From Escherichia coli (GTDB lineage Bacteria > Pseudomonadota > Gammaproteobacteria > Enterobacterales > Enterobacteriaceae), in NCBI RefSeq assembly GCF_045037415.1, contig NZ_CP173438.1: a stretch of 64,000 nt of DNA. The stretch is one strand, 5' to 3'. Below, piece by piece: positions 51,120 to 64,000 of this stretch. The notes beneath the pieces are model-generated. The model worked only from the letters and a program-made list of their open reading frames with translations. It did no database searches and was not told the DNA's origin. How positions within the stretch are numbered: position 1 is the first letter of the stretch; the number at the start of each line of letters is the position of its first letter. A program made the translations under genes and the position numbers.

Positions 51120-52784
51120 TTACTCGCCTACTTTCGCCCAGGTATCACGCAGCCCAACGGTGCGGTTAAATACCGGTTTTTCCGCCGTAGAATGGCGGCT
51201 GTCGAGGCAGAAGTAACCTTCACGCTCAAACTGGAATGCTTTACCCGCAACCGCATCTTTCAGCGACGGTTCAGCAAAGCCCTGTTTGATCACCAGCGAT
51301 TCCGGGTTAATCACCGACAGGAAATCATCCGCAGCACCAGGGTTCGGCACGCTGAACAGACGGTCATACAAACGGATTTCAACCGGCAGCGCATGTGCCG
51401 CGCTCACCCAGTGAATAACACCTTTGACTTTACGACCATCTGCCGGATCTTTGCTTAAGGTGTCGGCGTCATAAGTACAGAAGATGGTGGTGATATTGCC
51501 TTCGGCATCTTTCTCCACGCGTTCTGCCTTAATGACGTAAGCATTACGCAGACGCACTTCTTTACCCAGCACCAGACGTTTGTACTGCTTGTTAGCTTCT
51601 TCGCGGAAATCGGCGCGATCGATCCAAATCTCACCGCTAAATGGCACCTGACGGCTGCCCATTTCCGGTTTATTCGGATGGTTCGGCATGGTAACCATTT
51701 CGCCTTCGCCCTGGTAGTTTTCGATAACCAGTTTCACCGGATCGATAACCGCCATTGCGCGCGGCGCATTTTCGTTGAGATCTTCACGGATGCAGGATTC
51801 CAGTGACGCCATCTCAATGGTGTTGTCCTGCTTGGTCACACCAATGCGTTTGCAGAACTCACGAATAGAAGCCGCAGTGTAACCACGACGACGCAGACCA
51901 GAAATGGTCGGCATACGCGGGTCATCCCAGCCTTCAACGTGCTTGTCGGTCACCAGCAGGTTCAGCTTACGCTTGGACATCACAGTGTATTCCAGATTCA
52001 GGCGCGAGAATTCGTACTGGCGCGGGTGAACAGGAATGGTGATGTTGTCCAGTACCCAGTCGTACAGACGACGGTTGTCCTGGAACTCAAGCGTACACAG
52101 AGAGTGCGTAATACCTTCCAGCGCATCGCTGATGCAGTGGGTGAAGTCGTACATCGGGTAGATGCACCACTTGTTGCCAGTCTGGTGGTGTTCAGCAAAC
52201 TTAATGCGGTACAGCACCGGATCGCGCATCACGATAAACGGCGAAGCCATGTCGATTTTCGCACGCAGGCAGGCTTTACCTTCTTCAAAACCGCCGGTAC
52301 GCATTTTCTCGAACAGCGCCAGGTTCTCTTCAACGCTGCGATCGCGGTACGGGCTGTTTTTACCCGGCTGCGTCAAGGTGCCGCGGTATTCGCGGATCTG
52401 TTCCGGCGTCAGTTCATCAACGTACGCCAGGCCTTTATTGATCAGTTCGATCGCATAGGCGTGGAGCTGATCAAAATAATCGGAGGAGTAACGGACGTTA
52501 CCAGACCAGTGAAAACCTAACCACTCTACGTCGTTTTTGATCGAATCGACATACTCGATATCTTCTTTTACCGGGTTAGTGTCGTCGAAACGCAGGTTGC
52601 ACTGGCCTTTATAGTCCTGGGCGATCCCGAAGTTCAGGCAGATAGATTTCGCATGGCCAATATGCAGATAGCCATTCGGCTCCGGCGGGAAACGGGTGTG
52701 TACTGTGGTGTGCTTACCACTGGCCAGATCTTCATCGATGATCTGACGGATAAAGTTAGTCGGGCGGGCTTCTGCCTCACTCAT
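51120..52784 (-). CDS. glnS: glutaminyl-tRNA synthetase
   Basis: 554 aa; class I HIGH motif ([14 protein letters not shown]) and MSK motif. Confidence 0.97.
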
Positions 52785-53003
52785 CGTGGATTCCTCAAAG
52801 CGTAAACAACGTATAACGGCGTATGATCTTATAAGCGGGACAGGCTGACAACTGTTAGTTAGCGAAAAAATGGTTTTGCGTAAGATATTGGGGCGTTTTC
52901 TGCGCTACTGCCAGCAGATCCTCGCGCTGGAAACGTAAGGCCAAACGTCGCCAGCCTGACGCATTTATTAAATTTCCGGATGAGCTGGCCGCAGAGTCGT
53001 AGA

Positions 53004-53765
53004 TTAGTCGGCTATGATTAAACGCGTCGACAAGGACGCAAGCGTTCTACGCGTCTGCCCATCAAGCTGACTATCCGTAATAATCTCTGTCAGTTCATTA
53101 AGATGCGCGATATTAAACAGCGACCATGAACCGTATTTTGAGCTGTCAGCCAGGAGAATTTTGCGCGAAGCATGCGCGATAAGATCGCGTTTTAGTGCGG
53201 CTTTCTCTTCCGTGGGTGCTGTAATACCCTTTTCAAGATCCCAGCTGTTACAGCTTAAAAATGCCACGTCCGGCCAGGTATTTTGCAGCAATTTACGACC
53301 ATGTTCGCCAATGCAGGACTGGCTGGAGTCGTCAATACGTCCGCCGATAATCGTCACTTCAATTTGCTTGAATTCAGCCAAAAAAAGCGCGATATGCAGG
53401 TCGCTTGTGATCACGCGAAGCGGTAAATGTGTAATCTGCCGCGCAAGTTCAATCATTGTCGTACCGGCATCAAGGACGACGGAATCCCCCGCTTTGACCA
53501 TTGACGCCGCTGCGCTGGCGATGGCATGTTTTTCCGCCAGGCTGCGCTGCATTTTCTCATGGGTAGTCGGTTGGGTAGGAATAAACCGGTTGAGAGTCAC
53601 ACCGCCGTGTGTACGGCTGATAACACCCTGCTCATCGAGTTTTATCAGGTCTCGACGAATCGTAGCCGGCGACGCATTGGTTACCGCCACCAGCTCATCT
53701 ACGGTGACCAGATTATGGCTTTTCAGGTAATCCATGATCTGCTCTAACCGGTTATATCCCTTCAT
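53004..53765 (-). CDS. DeoR-family transcriptional regulator
   Basis: 253 aa; N-terminal HTH ([17 protein letters not shown]) and C-terminal sugar-phosphate sensor domain. Confidence 0.85.
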
Positions 53766-53766
53766 T

Positions 53767-54753
53767 TTATTCTCGCGAAATCTGCATTGCTAACTGGATG
53801 GAAACTGCCATGCTCTCAGACTTGGCTTTTCCTGTCCAGGCAATATCAAACGCGGTGCCGTGGTCGGCAGAAGTGCGAATAAATGGCAACCCGGCGGTGA
53901 TATTCACCCCATCATAAAATCCAAGCAGTTTTAAAGGGATATGCCCCTGATCGTGGTACATAGCCACTACCATATCGAATAGCCCTTCATGGCATTGCAT
54001 AAACACGGTATCTGGCGGGCACGGGCCAGTAACATCAATATCTTCGGCCTGCATTGCTTCAATCGCAGGCGCGATAATCTCGATTTCCTCAGTGCCGAAT
54101 AAACCATGTTCCCCTGCATGTGGATTTACACCCGCCACGGCAATACGCGGACGCTCAATACCAACACGTTTCAGGAAGTGGTTCGCAACTCGAATAACCG
54201 TTTTGACCCTTTCACCATTCAAAGTATCCAGGAATTTACGCAGTGAGATGTGAGTCGAAATATGGATAACCTTGAGCTTCTCGGTATAGAGCACCATCGC
54301 GTACTCTTTGCTGCCGGTAAGATGGGCCAGCAATTCCGTATGCCCCGGATAGTTATGCCCGCCAAGATGCAGCGCTTCTTTATTCAGCGGCGCAGTGGCT
54401 ATGGCTTTCACCTCGCCTGATAAGGCCAGAGCCGTTGCACGTTTGATACAGCGATACGCTAAATCGCCTGCCACAGCCTGTACCACTCCGGGTGTCAGCG
54501 CATCGGGGTTAGCCAGCGGCTCATCCATCACGTTAATCACGCCGGGAGCAAAATGGGCGTCGCACACCTTTTGAATGACGCGTAACTCTGCCTGCGGCGT
54601 GATATTCATCGCCATAATACGTCGCAGCGTGCGCACACAGCCCACCACCACCACCGGGGCACCAGCAAGCCCGGCTTCGCTCAGGGATTTAATAATGATC
54701 TCCGGGCCAATACCCGCCGGATCGCCCATCGTTACCGCAATAATATTATTCAC
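53767..54753 (-). CDS. PdxA-family NAD-dependent dehydrogenase (PdxA2-like, 4-phospho-hydroxy-acid oxidative decarboxylase type)
   Basis: 328 aa; [21 protein letters not shown]-terminus typical of PdxA; 8-nt overlap with the upstream kinase. Confidence 0.85.
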
Positions 54754-55984
54754 TACGCTTCTCCTCGATAAAATTCAGAACCTGATGCAACGTGGTCTCA
54801 TCGCCAAACCCACCGGCTTTCGTCATCACCGAACGGGACCAGACGCCGCCCAGAAAGTGACCGTATGGAACGCATTGCGCCACCTTCCCCGTAATACGAA
54901 ATCCGGTCGCGCCTAACGCACTGGCTGTTGCCATTGCGACATCACCACCAGAGAGATAAAGCGCATCGGGCATTGCGCAAAGCAGAACTTGCCGGGTAAG
55001 TTCGCCAAGAAACCGGCAAATTTTTTCCCCAAGTGCAGCGCGACTCATCTGCCAACGCTGGCAAAGGGTGTCGATCTGATGCCTTGCTACAGAATCGTTA
55101 CAGGTGTGGACAATACAGTGGTCGCCTTTCTGCAAGGCCTGCACAATACGCGCGTCATAGTCACTGGCATTGCCTGCCAGAATGTGTTCAACATCGACGT
55201 ATATCTGTGTGATACGTGGGTGTGAATGAAGTGTGGCGATCTGCCGTTGAGCGATTTCGCTCATTGAACCAATAATGGCCAGCACGGTGGGTGGCGGCAT
55301 AATCGCGGAGCGCCGGGCAACGGCATCACAAATACCAGCGGAGCCGACCAGCAGCAGCGGTTGTTTAGCCTGCATCACAGCGGCAGCGATGCGATCCAGG
55401 TCGCTGTCCGTCTGCGCATCTATCACGCCAATCCACGGTTGCTCATAAGACAAATGGCTGAGCTGAGAAACCGTAACGGGCTGGCATGGAATGGCCGTCT
55501 GCAACCGGATGATGTCCGCAATTCGGGCGCTCAATACCGGGGTTTTCGGATCGCTAGCAAACTCGGTTTCCGTTATCCGCACACCGTTTACCCAACACTC
55601 ACCGGCCACTGTGGTCCTTCCCGCCTGAGGAAATGCGGGGGCAACCACTGCGCCCGTTATACCGCATGCCTTCATCAGGGCTTCAATTTCTGCGCCGATA
55701 TTGCCTCGCAGCGTGGAATCTATCTTTTTAATCACGAGCGGCGGGTTATTCGCCAGAGGGAGATGACTCATCAGCGAGGTTATTTTCATCGCCGCCAGCT
55801 TAGGATCCATCGCCCGACTGTCGCTGTTAATCACCCATACGCTGGCATCACCGCGATAAGGCATTTCAAAGGCCACATCAACTGTATGCCCCACCTGCGC
55901 CAGGCTTACCCCCGCGTCGTTGGCTCCCGTGAAATCATCGGCAACGATGAGAATGCTCGGCTTAGTGATTCCCTTTTCCATCAT
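54746..55984 (-). CDS. DUF1537-family four-carbon acid-sugar kinase
   Basis: ORF-track frame to 56023 (TTG); start placed at tandem Met MMEKGITKPSILIVADDFTGANDAG, typical of the family. Confidence 0.8.
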   Translation of the reverse strand: MMEKGITKPSILIVADDFTGANDAGVSLAQVGHTVDVAFEMPYRGDASVWVINSDSRAMDPKLAAMKITSLMSHLPLANNPPLVIKKIDSTLRGNIGAEIEALMKACGITGAVVAPAFPQAGRTTVAGECWVNGVRITETEFASDPKTPVLSARIADIIRLQTAIPCQPVTVSQLSHLSYEQPWIGVIDAQTDSDLDRIAAAVMQAKQPLLLVGSAGICDAVARRSAIMPPPTVLAIIGSMSEIAQRQIATLHSHPRITQIYVDVEHILAGNASDYDARIVQALQKGDHCIVHTCNDSVARHQIDTLCQRWQMSRAALGEKICRFLGELTRQVLLCAMPDALYLSGGDVAMATASALGATGFRITGKVAQCVPYGHFLGGVWSRSVMTKAGGFGDETTLHQVLNFIEEKRSE

Positions 55985-56019
55985 CACTCCAGGTTGTTTT
56001 ATGATAACAATGATTATAT

Positions 56020-56033
56020 TCAATCATGATTGA
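56020..56033. promoter_or_regulatory. Perfect 14-bp palindrome TCAATCA|TGATTGA, candidate operator
   Basis: Located about 35 bp upstream of the kinase start in the divergent intergenic region. Confidence 0.4.
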
Positions 56034-56116
56034 TTAAATGTGAGCAAGCTCAAGTTATTAATCACTCGAATAAATTATAAAATTAGACCATGTTACGTAG
56101 GCTACGGCATTTTGAA

Positions 56117-56132
56117 TGATTGAATTCAATCA
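56117..56132. promoter_or_regulatory. Perfect 16-bp palindrome TGATTGAA|TTCAATCA, candidate operator
   Basis: Same half-site as 56020..56033 in opposite arrangement; about 20 bp upstream of the Fe-ADH start. Confidence 0.4.
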
Positions 56133-56150
56133 CCAGAAGAGAGGTTATTT

Positions 56151-57308
56151 GTGGTAATTATCAATAGCACGATACTGAGCGGCGCAGGCGCTATCCCTTC
56201 CCTGACGTCGCTCTTACCCGACATCAGAAAAATGCTGCTGGTCACTGACCGTAATATTGCGCAGCTCGACGGTGTGCAGCAGATTCGCGCCTTACTGGAA
56301 AAGCACTGCCCGCAGGTTAACGTTATCGATAATGTGCCCGCAGAGCCCACGCATCATGATGTGCGCCAGCTAATGGATGCCCTTGGCGATGCCTCTTTTG
56401 ATGTGGTGGTCGGGATCGGCGGTGGCAGCGTGTTGGATGTGGCGAAGCTGCTATCGGTGCTTTGCCATCCACAATCACCGGGGCTGGATGCGCTGCTTGC
56501 GGGTGAAAAACCGACTCAGCGGGTGCAATCATGGTTGATTCCTACAACCGCCGGAACCGGCTCAGAAGCCACGCCGAATGCGATTCTGGCAATCCCTGAG
56601 CAAAGCACGAAGGTGGGTATTATTTCCCAGGTGCTGTTACCAGACTATGTGGCGCTTTTCCCGGAACTGACCACCAGTATGCCCGCGCATATTGCGGCGT
56701 CCACGGGCATTGATGCTCTTTGCCACTTACTGGAGTGTTTTACCGCGACCGTGGCAAATCCGGTCAGCGATAACGCGGCGCTGACTGGGTTAAGTAAACT
56801 TTTCCGGCACATTCAACCCGCCGTGAACGATCCTCAGGATCTGCGCGCAAAACTGGAAATGCTGTGGGCGTCTTACTATGGCGGCGTAGCGATAACCCAT
56901 GCGGGCACGCATCTCGTTCATGCGCTCTCCTACCCGTTAGGTGGCAAATATCATCTGCCGCATGGCGTCGCGAATGCCATCTTGCTGGCGCCGTGCATGG
57001 CGTTTGTTCGCCCCTGGGCGGTCGAGAAATTTGCCCAGGTCTGGGATTGCATTCCCGATGCGGAAACCGCCCTGAGCGCGGAAGAAAAATCTCATGCCCT
57101 GGTGACCTGGTTACAGGCATTAGTCAATCAACTCAAGCTACCCAACAATCTCGCGGATCTCGGCGTACCGCCAGAGGATATTGCCTCTCTGAGCGAGGCG
57201 GCACTGAACGTGAAGCGCCTTATGAACAATGTGCCGTGCCAGCTTGATCTACAGGACGTACAGGCCATTTACCAAACACTGTTTCCGCAACATCAATTTA
57301 AGGAATAA
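56151..57308 (+). CDS. iron-containing (group III) alcohol dehydrogenase
   Basis: 385 aa; GTG start with GAGAGG Shine-Dalgarno; GGGSVLD and metal-binding His motifs. Confidence 0.85.
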   Translation: MVIINSTILSGAGAIPSLTSLLPDIRKMLLVTDRNIAQLDGVQQIRALLEKHCPQVNVIDNVPAEPTHHDVRQLMDALGDASFDVVVGIGGGSVLDVAKLLSVLCHPQSPGLDALLAGEKPTQRVQSWLIPTTAGTGSEATPNAILAIPEQSTKVGIISQVLLPDYVALFPELTTSMPAHIAASTGIDALCHLLECFTATVANPVSDNAALTGLSKLFRHIQPAVNDPQDLRAKLEMLWASYYGGVAITHAGTHLVHALSYPLGGKYHLPHGVANAILLAPCMAFVRPWAVEKFAQVWDCIPDAETALSAEEKSHALVTWLQALVNQLKLPNNLADLGVPPEDIASLSEAALNVKRLMNNVPCQLDLQDVQAIYQTLFPQHQFKE

Positions 57309-57311
57309 ATC

Positions 57312-58199
57312 ATGCCGAAAACCATTGAAGGTGTATTAACCGCTATCGTCACCCCGTTTACCGCGACCGGCAGTCTGAATATCCCGGCGTTAAAAGTGCA
57401 GGTGAATCGTCAACTGGAAGCGGGTAACGCGATTTTTTGCGGCGGCACCAACGGCGAGTTTTTTGTGTTGAATGAACAGGAGAAGCTCAGCGTTACGCAA
57501 ACCTGCGTGGATGAAGTGGCTGGTCGTGCGCCAGTCGTGGCACACATTGGCGAGATCTCTACGCGCGAAACGATTCGTCTGGGTCAGCAGATTGAAAAAC
57601 TTGGCGTAGATGCCGTGTCGGTCATTGCCCCTTACTTCGTACCGCTGAAACAGGAAGAGTTGATTGCGCATTACAGCGCAATTGCCGACACACTGAGCAT
57701 TCCGATGTTTCTCTATAACATCCCGGCCCGCACTGGCAATACGATCCAGCCAGAAACCGCGCGTGCTCTGGCGTCGCACCCCAATATCATTGGGATTAAA
57801 GACAGCGACGGAAGCGACGAAAGCCTGAAGGGTTTTCTCGATGCGGTGCGCGACATTGACGGCTTTAATGTGCTCAACGGCCCGGATTCGCTGATCCATA
57901 AAGGGTTTGTCGAGGGATGTTCAGCCTGTATCTCTGGGCTCGCCAACGTCGCGCCGCGAGAAATCAATGCCATCTGGTCTCGCTTCCATGCCGGTGATAT
58001 TGAAGGGTCTTATGAAGCACAGGAGAGTGTAACGGGCCTGCGTACCGATCTTTATAAAGTAGCATTCTCCCCGGCTGCGGTGAAAAAAGCGTTGCAGCTT
58101 ATGGGGCATGATGTTGGTGATAGCCGCTACGCGGTTAATTTCACGCCTGAACAGATCAGCGAGATTCAACAAATTATTCGTCATTATAACATTAATTAA
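57312..58199 (+). CDS. DapA/NanA-family class I aldolase (pyruvate-lyase type)
   Basis: 295 aa; GTNGEF motif, Schiff-base lysine in IIGIKDS, Tyr in LYNIP. Confidence 0.85.
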   Translation: MPKTIEGVLTAIVTPFTATGSLNIPALKVQVNRQLEAGNAIFCGGTNGEFFVLNEQEKLSVTQTCVDEVAGRAPVVAHIGEISTRETIRLGQQIEKLGVDAVSVIAPYFVPLKQEELIAHYSAIADTLSIPMFLYNIPARTGNTIQPETARALASHPNIIGIKDSDGSDESLKGFLDAVRDIDGFNVLNGPDSLIHKGFVEGCSACISGLANVAPREINAIWSRFHAGDIEGSYEAQESVTGLRTDLYKVAFSPAAVKKALQLMGHDVGDSRYAVNFTPEQISEIQQIIRHYNIN

Positions 58200-58258
58200 A
58201 TTAACTCTATTATCCAGCCCGCTATAAAGTTTAGATAAAGAGAATAAAGGATTACCCC

Positions 58259-59017
58259 ATGTTTTTGTGGTTTATGCAGCCAGATATCTGGCTCACTTTA
58301 ATTACCCTCACCTTTCTGGAAATTATTCTTGGGGTGGATAATATTATTTTTCTTTCACTGGTGGTGGCAAAACTTCCGTTATCACAACAAAATATGGCGC
58401 GTAAACTGGGTTTAAGCTGCGCGATGATTATGCGGATATTATTGCTGATATCCATTGCGTGGCTTTCACATATTACCCAGCCGCTTTTTACCGTGCTGAC
58501 GCTGGAGATTTCGTTCCGCACGTTGATTCTGCTCGGGGGCGGGCTGTTCCTGATTTATAAAGCGATACAGGAGATACGCGAAGAGCTGTCGCCCGCGCAG
58601 GAAGACGAACATGGCAGCGGATCGCGGCAACTGTCGTTGTGCGGTGCCATTGTACAGATAATGCTGCTCGATATCGTGTTTAGCCTGGATTCGGTGATCA
58701 CCGCCGTCGGCCTTTCTCAGCATATATTTATCATGATTGCCGCCGTAATGATTGCCGTCGGTGTCATGATGTTTGCGGCGAAAACAATTGGTGATTTCGT
58801 TAACGCCACGCCGTCAATAAAAATACTGGCGTTAACCTTTTTATTGTTTGTCGGTGTATTGCTGGTTGCCGATAGTCTCAACATTCATATTGCCAAAGAG
58901 TATCTCTACTTCGCGATATTTTTCTCATTAAGTGTTGAGACACTCAATATTATCCGTGAAAGAAAAAATAAAAAAGTTTCGACATTGATCGAAACGCATG
59001 AATCGCACTCGCATTAA
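58259..59017 (+). CDS. TerC-family integral membrane protein (YgdQ-like)
   Basis: 252 aa; LGVDNIIFLSLVVAKLP and QIMLLDIVFSLDSVITAVGL motifs. Confidence 0.8.
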   Translation: MFLWFMQPDIWLTLITLTFLEIILGVDNIIFLSLVVAKLPLSQQNMARKLGLSCAMIMRILLLISIAWLSHITQPLFTVLTLEISFRTLILLGGGLFLIYKAIQEIREELSPAQEDEHGSGSRQLSLCGAIVQIMLLDIVFSLDSVITAVGLSQHIFIMIAAVMIAVGVMMFAAKTIGDFVNATPSIKILALTFLLFVGVLLVADSLNIHIAKEYLYFAIFFSLSVETLNIIRERKNKKVSTLIETHESHSH

Positions 59018-59052
59018 TAAATCTATTACCAACTTTAAGATGGAGTCTAACT

Positions 59053-60222
59053 ATGTCTGTAGCCCTTATTCGTGACGGCGTCATCCGTCCATCCGAAAAC
59101 GATTCGCATGTGCTTACCGCCATGCTGCCCTCGTCCTGCCCGCAAAACCACGCGGCGAATATTCTGCCTTTGCCGGATGGCGCGTTAATGTGCGTCTGGT
59201 TTGCGGGAACGCAGGAAGGTATTGCCGATATTTCTGTCTGGGGATCGCGATTGCCCGCTGGCGGAATGCAGTGGAGCGATGCGGCCAAACTTTCCCACGA
59301 TGACACGCGTTCAGAGCAAAACCCGGTGCTGTTTCTCGCGCCGGATAACGTGCTGTGGCTCCTATGGACCGCACAAATATCCGGTAATCAGGACACCGCC
59401 ATCGTCCGCTACCGTAAGTCAGACGACCTCGGACAAACCTGGGGCGAGATTGCCACCCTGCTTGATAAACCCGGTACGTTCATTCGACAGCCAATCACGG
59501 TGCTTGATAACGGCAACTGGCTGCTGCCCGTCTTTTATTGCCGTACCCAACCCGGCGAAAAATGGGTCGGCAATGATGATATCAGCGCAGTGAAAATTTC
59601 CGCTGACGGTGGTCACTCCTGGCGCGATGTCGAGGTGCCGCAAAGTCTCGGCTGTGTTCATATGAATATCACAATGTTGCACGACGGTACGTTGGTTGCT
59701 CTCTTTCGCAGCCGTTGGGCAGACAACATCTATATCAGCCATTCAGTGGACAACGGCGAGAGTTGGTCGGTGCCGCAAGCAACCGAATTGCCCAACAACA
59801 ATTCGTCTATTCAGGTAACGACGCTTGCCAGCGGCGAACTGGCGCTGGTGTACAACGCGATGAGTGCGGCAGGCGCAGTAGAACGTCGCGCGTCGCTTTA
59901 TGACGAAATCGACGATGGCGACGACAGCCGCAAAGAACCGACAGCCGTCGGACGCTCCGCTTTCTGGGGTGCCCCACGCGCGCCGATGACGGTAGCGATT
60001 TCTGCCGATGGTGGGAAAAGCTGGTCGTGGCGGCGCAATCTCGATGAAGGCGACGGCTACTGCATGACCAACAATTCCCTGGAAAAGCTAAATCGTGAGT
60101 TCTCCTACCCCAGCATCAAACAAAGCCCGGACGGTACGCTACATATCGCTTACACCTGGTGGCGTCAGGCCATCAAGTACGTACGCATCTCCCCCGAGTG
60201 GGTTAAGGGGCAGGCATCATGA
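59053..60222 (+). CDS. BNR/Asp-box repeat protein, sialidase-like beta-propeller, no signal peptide
   Basis: 389 aa; four Asp-boxes (SDDLGQTW, SADGGHSW, SVDNGESW, SADGGKSW); N-terminus not hydrophobic. Confidence 0.8.
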   Translation: MSVALIRDGVIRPSENDSHVLTAMLPSSCPQNHAANILPLPDGALMCVWFAGTQEGIADISVWGSRLPAGGMQWSDAAKLSHDDTRSEQNPVLFLAPDNVLWLLWTAQISGNQDTAIVRYRKSDDLGQTWGEIATLLDKPGTFIRQPITVLDNGNWLLPVFYCRTQPGEKWVGNDDISAVKISADGGHSWRDVEVPQSLGCVHMNITMLHDGTLVALFRSRWADNIYISHSVDNGESWSVPQATELPNNNSSIQVTTLASGELALVYNAMSAAGAVERRASLYDEIDDGDDSRKEPTAVGRSAFWGAPRAPMTVAISADGGKSWSWRRNLDEGDGYCMTNNSLEKLNREFSYPSIKQSPDGTLHIAYTWWRQAIKYVRISPEWVKGQAS

Positions 60223-60689
60223 TTATCGGTAATCTCAACCATTTGTCGCTGGCGGGGCTTCCTGCCTGGGTGAGAAATATTCTGCTGCGCCCGGAGTGTT
60301 CGTTATCGGCGTTATCCACCAGAGAGGACGGTCGCTGGCAACCTGAAGGATGTCGGTGGTTCTGCTCGCTGGGAACTTCAGACACGCAACCCGCCGAACT
60401 TCGCCATACGGAGTATCACCATCTATGGGCCGATATACAGGTGGTGATTACTGGTTGTGAGGGCATTAATGCGGGAACGCGGCCCATCGCTCGCGAAAAC
60501 GATGAAGAACGTAAGCCCGATCTGTTTATCGCCCCATCCCCTGAAAACAGTGTCGCCATCACCCTACACGCCGGTGATTTCGCCGTCTTTATGCCTGAGG
60601 AACCTCACCAGGCACTGTGCGCAATTGGCACGGCTACTTCAATACGCAAAGCGGTCTTTAAAGTACCGCGCGACATGCTGGAAGCCTAA
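60219..60689 (+). CDS. YhcH/YjgK/YiaL-family (DUF386) protein
   Basis: 156 aa; ATGA start/stop overlap with the BNR gene. Confidence 0.75.
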   Translation: MIIGNLNHLSLAGLPAWVRNILLRPECSLSALSTREDGRWQPEGCRWFCSLGTSDTQPAELRHTEYHHLWADIQVVITGCEGINAGTRPIARENDEERKPDLFIAPSPENSVAITLHAGDFAVFMPEEPHQALCAIGTATSIRKAVFKVPRDMLEA

Positions 60690-60702
60690 AAGGAGAGAAA
60701 AA

Positions 60703-61983
60703 ATGACAATGGAAATGATCCTGGCATTAGGAATACTGGTCCTGATGATCGTGCTGATCATGTCGGACAAAATGCCTTTTGGCGCACCGCCACTGCTTGC
60801 GTGTTTATTGCTGGTTGTATCGGGACTTTCGACCGTTCAACAGGCTTTTGCCGGATTCGTCAATCCAAGCGTGGTGATGATTGCAGGGTTTATGGTGGTC
60901 ATGGCGGCGCTACAAAAAACCCGGCTTATCAGCAACGTTAAATCTGCGATGATAAGCCTGGTCAATAAAGGCAGTTACCGCAGCTATGGGCTGTTATTAG
61001 TCATTGTTATGCTGGGTGCCAGTCTTGCCGGCACCGGAGCGACCGGTTATTACGTGCTAATTCTGTCGCTGGTATCCACCATTCCGTACAGTAAAAAGCT
61101 ACCAACATCGAAATTAATGATGCCCCTGGGATTTGCCACCAACCACCCGCTTCTTCCTATCAATCTCGCGCTTCTCTTTGGCGTTACGGCGACCGTACTC
61201 GAAACCGCGGGGTTTCATCAGGCGATTTCGATGGGGCGCTTTGCGCTGGTGAATCTCATCATGTCAGCGGCTTTCCTCGCATGGAGTCTTATTGCCTACC
61301 GTTTTCTTCCGGATCATCCCATTGCGGATGCTTCCGAGGATGCGCTGGCGGCACGCGAGGAAACGTTTAACGCCCTTCCTGCCTGGAAAGAATATTGCAC
61401 TATTGCCGCATTCGCTGTCAGCGTTATCGGCATGATGCTAATGAACATTCTGGGAAATATCGCCTTCGTTATTCCGGGTCTTGCGGGTGCGTTTGTTCTG
61501 ATGATCGATGTACTGGACTTCAAAGAAGTTCGCGATCATATGGGGGCTCCGGTCATTTTAATGATGGCGGGGGTGATCGGTGTAGCTGATGCACTGGCGG
61601 GCACCGGCTTTACGGCGATGGTTGGCGATGCCGTTGCAGGTGTGCTCGGTTCTGGCGTCTCACCGTTTGTATTTATTGTCGCCTTTGCTTTGCTTACCAG
61701 TACCTGCGCCACCTTCACGGGTTCGAATATGGGGTCAGTATATATTTTTGCCCCCATCGCCATTGCCGCCTGTACTAGCCTTGGGCTTAACCCGACCGCT
61801 GCCGCGATTGCGGTGGTGATTTCTGGCTGGAATGGCGGCTATATGCCTATTGACGGAATGCCAGCCATGATCCTCGGAATGGGGAAATACAAACTTCCCG
61901 AATTCTGGGTGTTCTCTGTACCAATGTATCTCATCCGCATTCTGGCGCTTTGTGCAGGCGCTGTTTTTATCTTCCCAATGTAA
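60703..61983 (+). CDS. polytopic permease, ion-transporter superfamily (DASS/CitMHS-like), substrate unknown
   Basis: ORF-track frame from 60457 overlaps upstream genes; start placed at ATG 60703 (MTMEMILALGILVL) after AAGGAGAG Shine-Dalgarno. Confidence 0.75.
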   Translation: MTMEMILALGILVLMIVLIMSDKMPFGAPPLLACLLLVVSGLSTVQQAFAGFVNPSVVMIAGFMVVMAALQKTRLISNVKSAMISLVNKGSYRSYGLLLVIVMLGASLAGTGATGYYVLILSLVSTIPYSKKLPTSKLMMPLGFATNHPLLPINLALLFGVTATVLETAGFHQAISMGRFALVNLIMSAAFLAWSLIAYRFLPDHPIADASEDALAAREETFNALPAWKEYCTIAAFAVSVIGMMLMNILGNIAFVIPGLAGAFVLMIDVLDFKEVRDHMGAPVILMMAGVIGVADALAGTGFTAMVGDAVAGVLGSGVSPFVFIVAFALLTSTCATFTGSNMGSVYIFAPIAIAACTSLGLNPTAAAIAVVISGWNGGYMPIDGMPAMILGMGKYKLPEFWVFSVPMYLIRILALCAGAVFIFPM

Positions 61984-61991
61984 TCTCAGAC

Positions 61992-62027
61992 AAAAAAAGC
62001 GGCAGAGAAGATCCCTGCCGCTTTTTA
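61992..62027 (+). terminator. Intrinsic terminator of the island-B plus-strand operon
   Basis: aaaaaaagcggcag-agaagatcc-ctgccgcttttt hairpin with a T-run. Confidence 0.65.
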
Positions 62028-62032
62028 TTGTT

Positions 62033-62057
62033 GGATGCGACGCTGCCGCGTCGCATC
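62033..62057. repeat. REP-like palindrome between the island-B operon and nagE
   Basis: ggatgcgacgc-tgc-cgcgtcgcatc. Confidence 0.4.
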
Positions 62058-62071
62058 AGACATAAAGCAGA

Positions 62072-64000
62072 TTACTTTTTGATTTCATACAGCGGTGTTT
62101 GACCCGCCACAACATGGCCCTGAGCTTTAATGATAAGGCCGCTGAAATCATCGATATTGCTGCAAACCACCGGGCTAATCATCGAACGGGCGTTAGCGTT
62201 CAGGTAATCCAGATCCATTTCCAGAATCGGTTGCCCTGCGCTTACCTGCGCGCCCTCTTCCACCAGACGTTTAAAGCCTTTACCTTCCAGCGCTACGGTG
62301 TCGATACCCATATGGACGACGATCTCCGCGCCTTTTTCGGTTTCCAGACAGAACGCGTGGTTGGTGTTGAAGATTTTCACGATTGTTCCTGCGGCTGGTG
62401 ATACGACGATTTTATCTGTCGGTTTCACCGCCACACCGTCACCCACCGCTTTGCTGGCGAATGCTTCGTCAGGAATCTGATCCAGTGCCACAACATCCCC
62501 GGTAATCGGCGATACCAGCTCCGCGATAGATACCGCGTTTGGTACAGCCTGCGGTTTTGCTACAGGAGCGGCAGTTGCCGGAGTTGCTTCAGCTGACGCA
62601 GCGGCTACCGGACCACGGGCAACGACTTTCTTCATCGCATCGCCGATGGATTCTGCTTTCGCGCCAACAATCACCTGAATAGTCTGTTTGTTCAGTTTTA
62701 CTACCCCAGAAGCACCCAGACGTTTACACATCGCATCGTTGACGCGAGCTGAGTCAACCACGGTAAGGCGCAGACGAGTAATACAGGCGTCAATGGCTTT
62801 CAGGTTGTCAGTACCGCCAACCGCAGCAATATAGTTGGTTGCCAGTTGATTGAGACCTTCTTCAGTATTGCTGTTAGCCTCTTCAGTAACGATCTCGTCT
62901 TCTTTATCTTCACGACCCGGCGTTTTCAGGTTGAACATGCGGATAACCAAACTGAACACCACGAAGTAGATAGCGAAGAAGACAACCCCCATCACCAGCA
63001 GCATCCAGACGTTCTGGCTGGCGGCCGGCAGGTTATACATCAACGCGTAGTCGATAGCCCCCGCAGAGAAAGAGAAGCCGGCATGGATACCCAGCAACGT
63101 TGCCACAAACAGGCTGATACCGGTCAGCAGTGCGTGCAGGAGGTACAGCAGCGGTGCAAGGAACATGAACAGGAATTCCAGCGGCTCAGTCACACCGGTC
63201 AGGAACGCAGTAACAGCAACAGAAAGCAGCATCCCGCCAACCATCGGACGACGCTCTTTCGGTGCTGCGAAGTACATCGCCAGCGCCGCACCCGGCAGGC
63301 CGAACATCATAATCGGGAAGAAGCCGGACATGAACATCCCCGCGGTGCCGTCACCGGCATAGAAGCGGTTGATATCACCGTGGAAAACCGTTCCCGCCGC
63401 GTTGGTGAATTCACCAATCTGGAACCAGGCGATGGTGTTCAGCACCTGATGCAGACCGGTTGGGATCAGCAGACGGTTGATGAAACCAAAGATACCGGAA
63501 CCCAGCGCGCCCGCAGAAACGATCCACTCGCCGCCTGCATGGATAGCGTGCTGTACCGGTGGCCAGACGTAACCAAAAATGGCCGCCAGCACCAGACAGA
63601 AGAAGCCGGTGGCTATCGGCACAAAGCGTTTGCCGCCGAAGAAGCTCAGGAAGTCCGGCAGTTTAATATCGGACCAACGGTTATAGGCTGCGCCACCAAC
63701 CAGACCGGTAATGATACCCGCCAGTACACCCATGTTAATTTCTGGGTTGATGGTCACCATCGCTTTGGTTAACACAAAGTAACCTACCGCACCCGCCAGT
63801 GCCGCCGCACCTGCGCTGTCTTTCGACCAGCTGGATGCCACGCCGATGGCGAATATTAATGCGAGGTTATCAAAAATCGCACCGCCCGCCTGGGCAATAA
63901 ACGCAACGTTAAGTAAATCTGGCTGACCGAATCGCAGCAACAGCGCCGCCACCGGCAGCACCGCGATAGGGAGCTGTAACGCCCTACCGAGTCGCTGGAA
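62072..64000 (-). CDS. nagE: PTS N-acetylglucosamine-specific EIICBA, partial (5' end beyond window end)
   Basis: ORF-track protein begins within the N-terminal region (LPVAALLLRFGQPDLLNVAF...); frame stays open to the window edge. Confidence 0.95.
   Translation of the reverse strand, partial: FQRLGRALQLPIAVLPVAALLLRFGQPDLLNVAFIAQAGGAIFDNLALIFAIGVASSWSKDSAGAAALAGAVGYFVLTKAMVTINPEINMGVLAGIITGLVGGAAYNRWSDIKLPDFLSFFGGKRFVPIATGFFCLVLAAIFGYVWPPVQHAIHAGGEWIVSAGALGSGIFGFINRLLIPTGLHQVLNTIAWFQIGEFTNAAGTVFHGDINRFYAGDGTAGMFMSGFFPIMMFGLPGAALAMYFAAPKERRPMVGGMLLSVAVTAFLTGVTEPLEFLFMFLAPLLYLLHALLTGISLFVATLLGIHAGFSFSAGAIDYALMYNLPAASQNVWMLLVMGVVFFAIYFVVFSLVIRMFNLKTPGREDKEDEIVTEEANSNTEEGLNQLATNYIAAVGGTDNLKAIDACITRLRLTVVDSARVNDAMCKRLGASGVVKLNKQTIQVIVGAKAESIGDAMKKVVARGPVAAASAEATPATAAPVAKPQAVPNAVSIAELVSPITGDVVALDQIPDEAFASKAVGDGVAVKPTDKIVVSPAAGTIVKIFNTNHAFCLETEKGAEIVVHMGIDTVALEGKGFKRLVEEGAQVSAGQPILEMDLDYLNANARSMISPVVCSNIDDFSGLIIKAQGHVVAGQTPLYEIKK

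Follow-up and report, generated by a model that had tools for sequence, protein, structure and literature searches.

What a TerC-family membrane protein does inside a cluster of catabolic genes is the question raised by a stretch of 64,000 nucleotides of the Escherichia coli contig NZ_CP173438.1 (assembly GCF_045037415.1), called the window below. The gene occupies positions 58259-59017 on the plus strand. An earlier sequence-only reading had placed it between a lyase gene and a BNR-propeller gene with short gaps, which amount to 59 nt and 35 nt, in what is presumed to be a sugar-acid catabolic operon. It is quite possible, if not quite probable, that this TerC is an accessory divalent-cation (Ca2+/Mn2+) exporter, recruited to the transport step of a mobile catabolic cluster for a chelating sugar acid.

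Distribution of TerC among versions of the cluster

Eighty loci with an orthologue of the propeller gene were collected from species-representative genomes by a scan with an eight-sequence alignment and were typed by tblastn. A further 75 metagenomic loci were gathered via the permease, and every open reading frame (ORF) of all loci was searched with the TerC profile. The dominant version of the cluster displayed the order FeADH-DHDPS-SSF-BNR-YhcH-SDR, where SSF stands for a Na+/solute symporter and SDR for a short-chain dehydrogenase. Its hosts were Enterobacterales, many of them plant-associated (Pantoea, Erwinia, Pectobacterium, Dickeya, Kosakonia), and it was also encountered in Bacillus, Paenibacillus, Bradyrhizobium and Methylobacterium. 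No specific function emerged when the SSF and SDR proteins were scanned with NCBIfam models. In the E. coli-type cluster, TerC occupies the slot of the symporter and a DASS-like permease that of the SDR. The two versions could be compared directly in Klebsiella, where the TerC/DASS cluster of K. oxytoca and the SSF/SDR cluster of K. aerogenes lie at the same chromosomal site and DNA homology breaks only where SSF and TerC, and SDR and DASS, replace each other. Remnants of SSF or SDR genes were sought in TerC/DASS-type loci by tblastn at relaxed thresholds, and only noise was obtained.

Presence of TerC followed the type of transporter. None of the 61 SSF-type loci carried it, while it was found in 38 of 51 DASS-type loci, in one of three TTT-type loci and in the single TAXI-TRAP-type locus; these counts are raw and non-dereplicated and, the loci being phylogenetically related, they overstate independence, to the disadvantage of the explanation favoured here. 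Most of the 38 TerC-bearing DASS-type loci represent one enterobacterial lineage; the others are independent and have TerC placed differently. As a side observation, the SDR gene tracked the SSF gene (51 of the 61 SSF-type loci, none of the 51 DASS-type loci; loci L006-L088), and several Pantoea and Bradyrhizobium genomes displayed the SSF-BNR-SDR trio alone, without genes for the aldolase, Fe-ADH, DtnK and PdxA2.

Anion-type clusters (DASS, TTT, TAXI-TRAP) of at least six lineages carried unrelated TerC genes, which stood at differing positions. Aeromonas enteropelogenes (L094) displayed the order YhcH-DASS-TerC-KdgM porin, with a TerC 81% identical to YgdQ and 58% identical to the island clade. 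The GC content of its TerC and KdgM genes was 0.39, against 0.46-0.51 in the rest of the transferred block and 0.57-0.63 in the native flank; this foreign composition ruled out a YgdQ-type TerC that was simply a native neighbour. A donor was sought for the Aeromonas TerC and was not identified. The porin gene (L094 11235-11939), of the KdgM family (oligogalacturonate-type), ends the transferred block after TerC. Metagenomic locus L135 had the order YhcH-TerC-BNR-DASS, and loci L136 and L125/L126 the order DASS-TerC. In Propionivibrio soli the order was BNR-FeADH-TerC and the transporter was a TctABC tricarboxylate system, while a metagenome-assembled genome of Formivibrio displayed DHDPS-TAXI binding protein-DctQM-TerC. 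The TerCs of these five (L135, L136, L125/L126, Propionivibrio and Formivibrio) belong to a YjbE/YkoY-like branch; they share only 22-26% identity with the E. coli TerC and 33-47% with each other, and scored 125-163 bits with Pfam TerC. Judged from these alignments and gene orders, the repeated recruitment of different TerC paralogues only alongside anion or carboxylate transporters would be hard to explain without a function.

The sequence-only reading had proposed looking for TerC homologues beside BNR, YhcH and DapA genes in other genomes, and such co-occurrence was indeed found, both for the same clade and for unrelated TerCs in other versions of the cluster. Its idea of a mosaic insertion agrees with the history suggested by the breaks at the SSF/TerC and SDR/DASS junctions; as a reason to dismiss the gene it is opposed by the purifying selection described below.

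Other cation exporters in the place of TerC

Unassigned genes were inspected in the 13 DASS-type loci without TerC. The operon of L141 includes, between the propeller gene and yhcH, a gene for a Ca2+/Na+ antiporter that reached 217 bits with TIGR00367 (cut-off 180). In L139 and L150, the permease gene is immediately followed by one for a 910-residue P2A-type ATPase, which best matched Ca2+ pumps of the PMR1 type (678 bits) and SERCA type (669 bits), slightly under the equivalog cut-offs. Neither kind of gene was present in any of the 61 SSF-type loci. According to their family assignments, TerC (Mn2+, possibly others), CaCA antiporters (Ca2+) and P2A pumps (Ca2+/Mn2+) would share one activity, the extrusion of divalent cations.

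The TerC gene and its product

Read from its ATG to its TAA, the gene encodes 252 residues. An AAGGA ribosome-binding site was read 7-8 nt upstream of the start, in the AT-rich 59-nt spacer (58200-58258, plus strand) that follows the aldolase gene. The product matched Pfam TerC (PF03741) with 157.3 bits (cut-off 27.8) over profile positions 1-177 of 178, and it is labelled 'TerC family protein' in RefSeq. It remained under the cut-offs of the YkoY (TIGR03716, 85.4 bits against 138.5) and YjbE (TIGR03717, 67.4 bits against 134.8) models. An AlphaFold2 (AF2) model, with a predicted local distance difference test score (pLDDT) of 76.6, displayed seven predicted transmembrane helices (residues 8-37, 41-71, 86-110, 127-152, 156-183, 185-206 and 213-251), the number described for the family (PMC10550928). 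Sequence searches of the PDB with TerC, the permease and the propeller gave no relatives, and a Foldseek search of the PDB with the TerC model gave nothing at E<0.3.

Outside the island, YgdQ orthologues come closest to this TerC, with ~62% identity. Members of the island clade are ~75% identical to each other and ~61% to YgdQ proteins, which are ~84% identical among themselves, and 13 alignment columns separate the two clades. Because it forms this separate clade, the island TerC is, by sequence comparison, a paralogue of YgdQ and not an orthologue. Export of Mn2+ by Alx needs the intramembrane acidic residues E86, D92, E213, D216 and D222 (PMC10197570). Alx D92, D216 and D222 correspond to D27, D138 and D144 of the island TerC and were invariant in 17 of 17 aligned TerCs; Alx N93 was likewise invariant across cluster-associated TerCs. 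Alx E86 aligns with E21, and E213 is not conserved, being replaced by Met.

TerC genes had been described in the sequence-only reading as often stand-alone or controlled by riboswitches. Rfam scans at E<=1 of window positions 52500-62500 and of the Kluyvera and K. oxytoca loci (L002, L005) found no yybP-ykoY element and no other credible element, and riboswitch control of this gene was ruled out accordingly. Terminator-like and promoter-like sites around TerC did not exceed shuffle expectation.

Base composition

The gene had also looked more AT-rich than its neighbours by eye, and windowed calculation bore this out: its GC content is 0.443 against 0.50-0.56 in every neighbour, which makes it the GC minimum of the island and ranks it within the bottom 5.7% of windows of its size in the 64 kb. 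The deficit in E. coli lies mainly at codon positions 1 and 2, the protein being rich in Ile, Leu and Phe, so that foreign composition as a simple explanation was only partly valid there. GC content at third codon positions (GC3) is 0.53 for TerC and 0.54-0.63 for its neighbours in E. coli. It was the lowest of the cluster in every host examined, for instance 0.53 against 0.64-0.74 in K. oxytoca and 0.47 against 0.62-0.67 in Citrobacter rodentium. Composition is thus a weak signal of a separate origin of TerC.

Conservation

The same TerC clade was encountered in the same slot in the Klebsiella oxytoca group, Kluyvera, C. rodentium, Salmonella enterica subsp. salamae and Metakosakonia. The cluster adjoins marRAB in these other hosts, and not glnS/nagE as in E. 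coli. TerC was full length (252-253 residues) in seven species (E. coli, three Kluyvera, two of the K. oxytoca group and C. rodentium), with pairwise ratios of nonsynonymous to synonymous substitution (dN/dS) of ~0.06-0.16, rough values given that dS was saturated, which are similar to those of neighbour genes. Judged by these ratios, TerC is under purifying selection. In C. rodentium (L089), TerC was kept while yhcH, dtnK, pdxA2 and deoR were gone. Partial decay was also seen in S. salamae (L174), where no propeller gene was called, and in Metakosakonia (L175), where the Fe-ADH gene is split; TerC was intact in both.

The island and its predicted pathway

Comparison with MG1655 by blastn gave homology from window position 64000 to 61989 and from 52860 to 51377. 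The 9,128-bp island between them (52861-61988) replaces 43 bp of the K-12 nagE-glnS spacer. It was found in 1046 of 5426 complete E. coli genomes (19%), nearly always at >=99% identity, and its carriers include the extraintestinal pathogenic E. coli (ExPEC) model strains UTI89 and BEN2908. The BEN2908 genome paper described it as 'GR 6' with eight ORFs and did not mention TerC (PMC12928451), because the copy of that strain is split by IS1.

Three genes lie on the minus strand: a DeoR/GlpR-family regulator gene (53004-53765; Pfam HTH_DeoR and DeoRC, RefSeq), a pdxA2-type gene for D-threonate 4-phosphate dehydrogenase (53767-54753; NCBIfam NF002891, 679.2 bits against a cut-off of 583) and dtnK for a D-threonate kinase of the DUF1537 family (54746-55981; NF047819, 531.1 bits against 450). 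Only dtnK and pdxA2 passed curated equivalog cut-offs among the island genes. The ORF call for dtnK was over-extended to a TTG at 56023, RefSeq using the ATG at 55981. The divergent intergenic region between dtnK and the Fe-ADH gene (55982-56150) is a putative promoter/operator region, according to gene layout only.

The rightward genes, all on the plus strand, are headed by that for the iron-containing alcohol dehydrogenase (56151-57308; Pfam Fe-ADH and ADH_Fe_C), followed by the gene for a DapA/NanA-like class I aldolase of the DHDPS family (57312-58199; Pfam DHDPS, 204 bits), whose product scored under every NCBIfam equivalog cut-off. The TerC stop codon is 35 nt from the gene for a sialidase-fold (BNR_2) six-bladed propeller (59053-60222; Pfam BNR_2, 221 bits), whose N-terminus is unlike a signal peptide by eye. 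The YhcH/NanQ-like (DUF386) gene (60219-60689; Pfam DUF386, and TIGR00022 with 95 bits against a cut-off of 45.5) overlaps the propeller stop by 4 nt. The last gene of the island, 13 nt beyond, encodes the DASS-like ('SLC13 family') anion permease (60703-61983; RefSeq start). Its ORF call was over-extended to a GTG at 60457 (508 residues, as in the avian pathogenic strain APEC O1), RefSeq and orthologues using the ATG at 60703 (426 residues). The permease matched Pfam CitMHS (85.9 bits) and Na_sulph_symp (48.1 bits), both above gathering thresholds, and the DASS model TIGR00785 with 55.5 bits against a cut-off of 198.6; from such matches it is safe to call it only a DASS-like member of the ion-transporter superfamily.

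Permeases of Enterobacteriaceae and of Firmicutes (Paenibacillus, Anaeromicropila, Bacillus salacetis, Clostridium; L070, L090, L091, L125, L135 and L136) shared 74-78% identity. GC3 of the permease gene was well above that of neighbouring genes in L125, L135 and L136; in L135 the BNR and DASS genes reached 0.6 against ~0.17-0.21. On sequence grounds the permease gene, and in L135 the propeller gene too, seems to have crossed between phyla recently. Firmicute-type clusters (L070, L090, L091, L135, L136, L141) displayed a PrpR_N/sigma-54-type activator and proteobacterial ones a DeoR-type regulator. In Firmicute-type loci L125, L130, L131, L135, L137, L148 and L169, a gene for a BD-FAE-family esterase (~325 residues) follows the permease or the permease-TerC pair, which hints at an O-acylated natural substrate.

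The AF2 model of the propeller (pLDDT 93) resembled GH33 sialidases in Foldseek (that of M. viridifaciens and others; template modelling score 0.72, probability 1.0) at ~15% identity. GH33 enzymes are marked by an Arg triad and a Tyr/Glu nucleophile pair; in the propeller, Arg residues R145, R219, R221, R309 and R371 are invariant and Tyr352 nearly so, which need not be equivalent to those catalytic positions. YhcH is a metal-dependent anomerase that passes open-chain sialic acid to the aldolase NanA (PMC8141875). The families of dtnK and pdxA2 set the end of the pathway, from D-threonate through 4-phospho-D-threonate to dihydroxyacetone phosphate (DHAP); the BEN2908 paper had read this gene pair as related to pyridoxal phosphate (PMC12928451). 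A candidate substrate is 3-deoxy-D-lyxo-heptulosaric acid (Dha), a sugar of rhamnogalacturonan II, or a pectic fragment containing it. By our own derivation from carbohydrate stereochemistry, aldol cleavage of Dha would give pyruvate and D-threuronate, and reduction of the aldehyde would give D-threonate. Such a substrate would provide roles for the aldolase, Fe-ADH, DtnK and PdxA2, and it would account for the carboxylate transporters, the Aeromonas KdgM porin, the Firmicute BD-FAE esterases and the plant-associated hosts. A literature search found no paper on Dha catabolism or on such a pathway.

A proposed exporter tied to uptake

In the proposed mechanism, the cluster would import an acidic ulosonic-type sugar, which the sialidase-fold enzyme and the YhcH-type anomerase would process and the DapA-like aldolase would cleave; the C4 fragment would be converted to D-threonate and on to DHAP by Fe-ADH, DtnK and PdxA2. 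Uptake in the common version would rely on the SSF symporter together with the SDR, and in the island version on the DASS-like anion permease, with TerC in the former symporter slot. The substrate of the anion permease would be a di- or tricarboxylic sugar acid arriving as a Ca2+ or Mn2+ chelate, a proposal made because the permease, TctA and DctM serve di- and tricarboxylates, which chelate metals. Co-expressed TerC would expel, and thereby recycle, the co-imported cation; a full metal cycle would include outward supply for complex formation as well as return of the cation. Citrate binding and uptake by TTT systems are raised by Ca2+, Mn2+ and Fe2+ (PMC5812351), and a 2026 preprint reports binding of Zn2+- and Ni2+-citrate by BctC (bioRxiv 10.64898/2026.07.27.740893). 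The family, the acidic residues and the replacement by Ca2+ exporters suggest that the island TerC exports cations; the ion moved and the entry of metal with the substrate we infer by analogy. A more specific form of the proposal, in which the operon carries its own interchangeable cation-extrusion module (TerC, CaCA antiporter or P2A ATPase) and the nutrient is a plant-cell-wall ulosonic chelate such as Dha from rhamnogalacturonan II or Dha-GalA, is rather doubtful. The metal link drawn in the sequence-only reading survives in part: divalent-cation export or recycling appears tied to transporter type, while supply to cytoplasmic enzymes is disfavoured by the presence of the same enzymes without TerC in 61 of 61 SSF-type clusters.

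Several points weigh against an exporter tied to uptake. Ten DASS-type loci (including Paenibacillus, Anaeromicropila and Bacillus salacetis) displayed no cation exporter in the sequence examined, and two of the three TTT-type loci had no TerC; an exporter is therefore not obligatory, being helpful rather than essential, or else housekeeping exporters suffice in those hosts. DASS transporters are not known to carry metal complexes, and Ca2+ movement has been shown for no TerC protein. No CitMHS-family model was among the NCBIfam matches of the permease, and the identity of the substrate is itself deduced. Co-transcription of the rightward operon is likewise presumed from its layout. The aldolase gene and TerC are 59 nt apart in E. 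coli; the distance grows to 112 nt in K. oxytoca (L005 7889-8000) and to 283 nt in Kluyvera (L002 7719-8000). GC-rich hairpins occur in both of the longer spacers, with a T-rich run behind that of K. oxytoca, so that an attenuator or promoter dedicated to TerC may exist in these hosts. The E. coli alleles belong here too. In seven (~12%) of 60 evenly sampled island-positive genomes, TerC has lost 1 bp from a G-run (nt 277), and its reading frame shifts at codon 93; carriers include UTI89, MS8345 and APEC 16-1068, the gene is called 'frameshifted' in RefSeq, and the flanking genes are intact. BEN2908 has an IS1 element inside the gene, and rare alleles carry in-frame deletions in a transmembrane helix. 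In-frame deletions within the protein measure 5, 10 or 17 residues, and some seem to be bounded by short direct repeats. Loss of 7 bp from an A-rich run (nt 705-711) gives a 240-residue protein in which only the C-terminal tail is altered. Examples of E. coli alleles are loci L092 (UTI89) and L093 (FDAARGOS_1260).

Such alleles are what would be expected of a neutral hitch-hiker that came with the recombination removing the symporter gene and has no role in the pathway: the frameshift of the UTI89 lineage, the IS1 of BEN2908 and the transmembrane deletions all speak for it, as do the low GC, a GC3 below that of all other cluster genes in every host examined, the cassette-like replacement and the absence of TerC from 13 DASS-type loci. 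It is nonetheless judged decidedly unlikely, in view of the low dN/dS (~0.06-0.16) of a gene kept at full length in seven species, its retention in the degraded C. rodentium cluster, and at least six independent recruitments of unrelated TerCs at various positions in non-SSF versions only; chance adjacency is improbable when genomes generally hold few TerC genes. An outward supplier or chaperone is unlikely too; by this reading, exported Mn2+ or another cation would metalate, outside the cytoplasm, the permease, a binding protein or the substrate (the last so as to be recognised as a metal complex), and TerC would not detoxify imported metal. In its favour, membrane and secreted enzymes of B. 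subtilis receive metal from MeeF and MeeY, which associate with the Sec translocon (PMC10550928), and MeeY is needed for surfactin export via the SwrC pump, for which cargo metalation is the proposed mechanism (PMC12096827). TerC adjoins or lies near the transporter gene in five of seven lineages, and binding-protein systems (TTT, TAXI-TRAP) are among its partners. The E. coli cluster, however, has no evident secreted or periplasmic protein by eye, and a high-capacity Ca2+/Na+ antiporter or Ca2+ pump in the place of TerC suits bulk efflux better than delivery. Supply also overlaps with an exporter tied to uptake, since the metal cycle would need both steps.

The slot of TerC, exactly that of the SSF gene, would also fit a transporter of organic solutes, which either imports the substrate in place of the symporter or exports a toxic intermediate as a safety valve of the LysE superfamily. 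The TerC family does belong to that superfamily of small-molecule exporters (PMC10550928), and the TerC of L136 gave a weak Pfam LysE match (25.8 bits). We give this little credence: no TerC is generally known to move an organic solute, the intramembrane Asp/Asn residues typical of cation sites are conserved, the replacements of TerC are dedicated Ca2+ transporters, and the permease always accompanies TerC. The suggestion of a metabolite exporter, made in the sequence-only reading, found nothing in its support. It is very improbable that TerC merely serves ion or pH homeostasis, offsetting alkalinisation or Na+ load from polyanion import and decarboxylation with no metal-substrate complex. Alx becomes more active and more strongly expressed at alkaline pH (PMC10197570), the family name of PdxA2 denotes an oxidative decarboxylase, and DASS carriers usually co-transport several Na+; but SSF-type clusters share the decarboxylation step and the use of Na+ and never hold TerC. 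Disposal of Na+ is further disfavoured because a Ca2+/Na+ antiporter brings Na+ in and would add to the load.

Significance

TerC proteins are widespread among bacteria, yet the only roles that experiments connect with them are Mn2+ efflux, tellurite resistance and the metalation of exported enzymes, and the YgdQ branch is without an assigned role. The island TerC adds a new branch of paralogues to a known family, in a functional context that is both new and recurrent; a literature search gave no paper describing this context, and none linking TerC to the cluster, to DUF1537/D-threonate or to a function of YgdQ. If correct, the exporter proposal would give the YgdQ branch its first physiological role, possibly as a Ca2+ exporter, in substrate-coupled metal cycling. 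The Dha proposal would add an undescribed route from Dha through pyruvate plus D-threuronate and D-threonate to DHAP, that is, the missing catabolism of a rhamnogalacturonan-II sugar. By this pattern, gut and plant-associated bacteria would appear to take up one nutrient in the form of a metal chelate, whose metal is budgeted. With the island in about one fifth of complete E. coli genomes, ExPEC strains included, the substrate may matter for colonisation.

Comparison with known systems

YgdQ, an uncharacterised inner-membrane protein of E. coli K-12, shares with the island TerC ~62% identity across the core and the length class. Both carry the motifs EIxLGxDNIIF and LLDIxFSLDSVITAVG and both are without a riboswitch. 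Unlike YgdQ, the island TerC is embedded in an operon, is horizontally mobile and has a variable 15-residue C-terminal tail. More distant are the TerC-family Mn2+ exporters and exoenzyme-metalating proteins Alx and MeeF/MeeY. Export of Mn2+ is the described activity of TerC proteins (PMC10550928). Alx is of the same Pfam family but only 19-22% identical to the island TerC. MeeF and MeeY of B. subtilis have seven transmembrane helices (PMC10550928), as does the island model, while nine were predicted for Alx (PMC10197570). The island TerC differs from these proteins in having no yybP-ykoY riboswitch and is presumably controlled by the DeoR-type sugar regulator and not by metal. The TerC of the terZABCDE tellurite-resistance operon is of the same Pfam family as well; the island context is instead a catabolic cluster, and terZ, terA, terB, terD and terE were sought in the island and its flanks and were absent.

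The proposed logic is supplied by the CitM/CitH metal-citrate symporters and by TctCBA/BctCBA, which take up polycarboxylates with, or in dependence on, a divalent cation. TctABC is itself the transporter of one TerC-bearing cluster, whereas the E. coli permease is DASS-like. We know of no dedicated co-encoded cation exporter described for these systems.

Sialic-acid (nan) clusters display the same families and the same logic as the island, with a GH33-fold propeller, a YhcH-family protein and a DapA/NanA aldolase. They use SSF- or TRAP-type uptake, and all three island proteins scored under the equivalog cut-offs specific for N-acetylneuraminic acid. The island propeller is apparently cytoplasmic, and the downstream genes would lead to D-threonate and DHAP, unlike the N-acetylmannosamine products of nan clusters. 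With the DtnK/PdxA2 (DUF1537 kinase) pathway the island has its final steps in common; in the island, a module acting ahead of the pair would yield D-threonate from a larger acid sugar.

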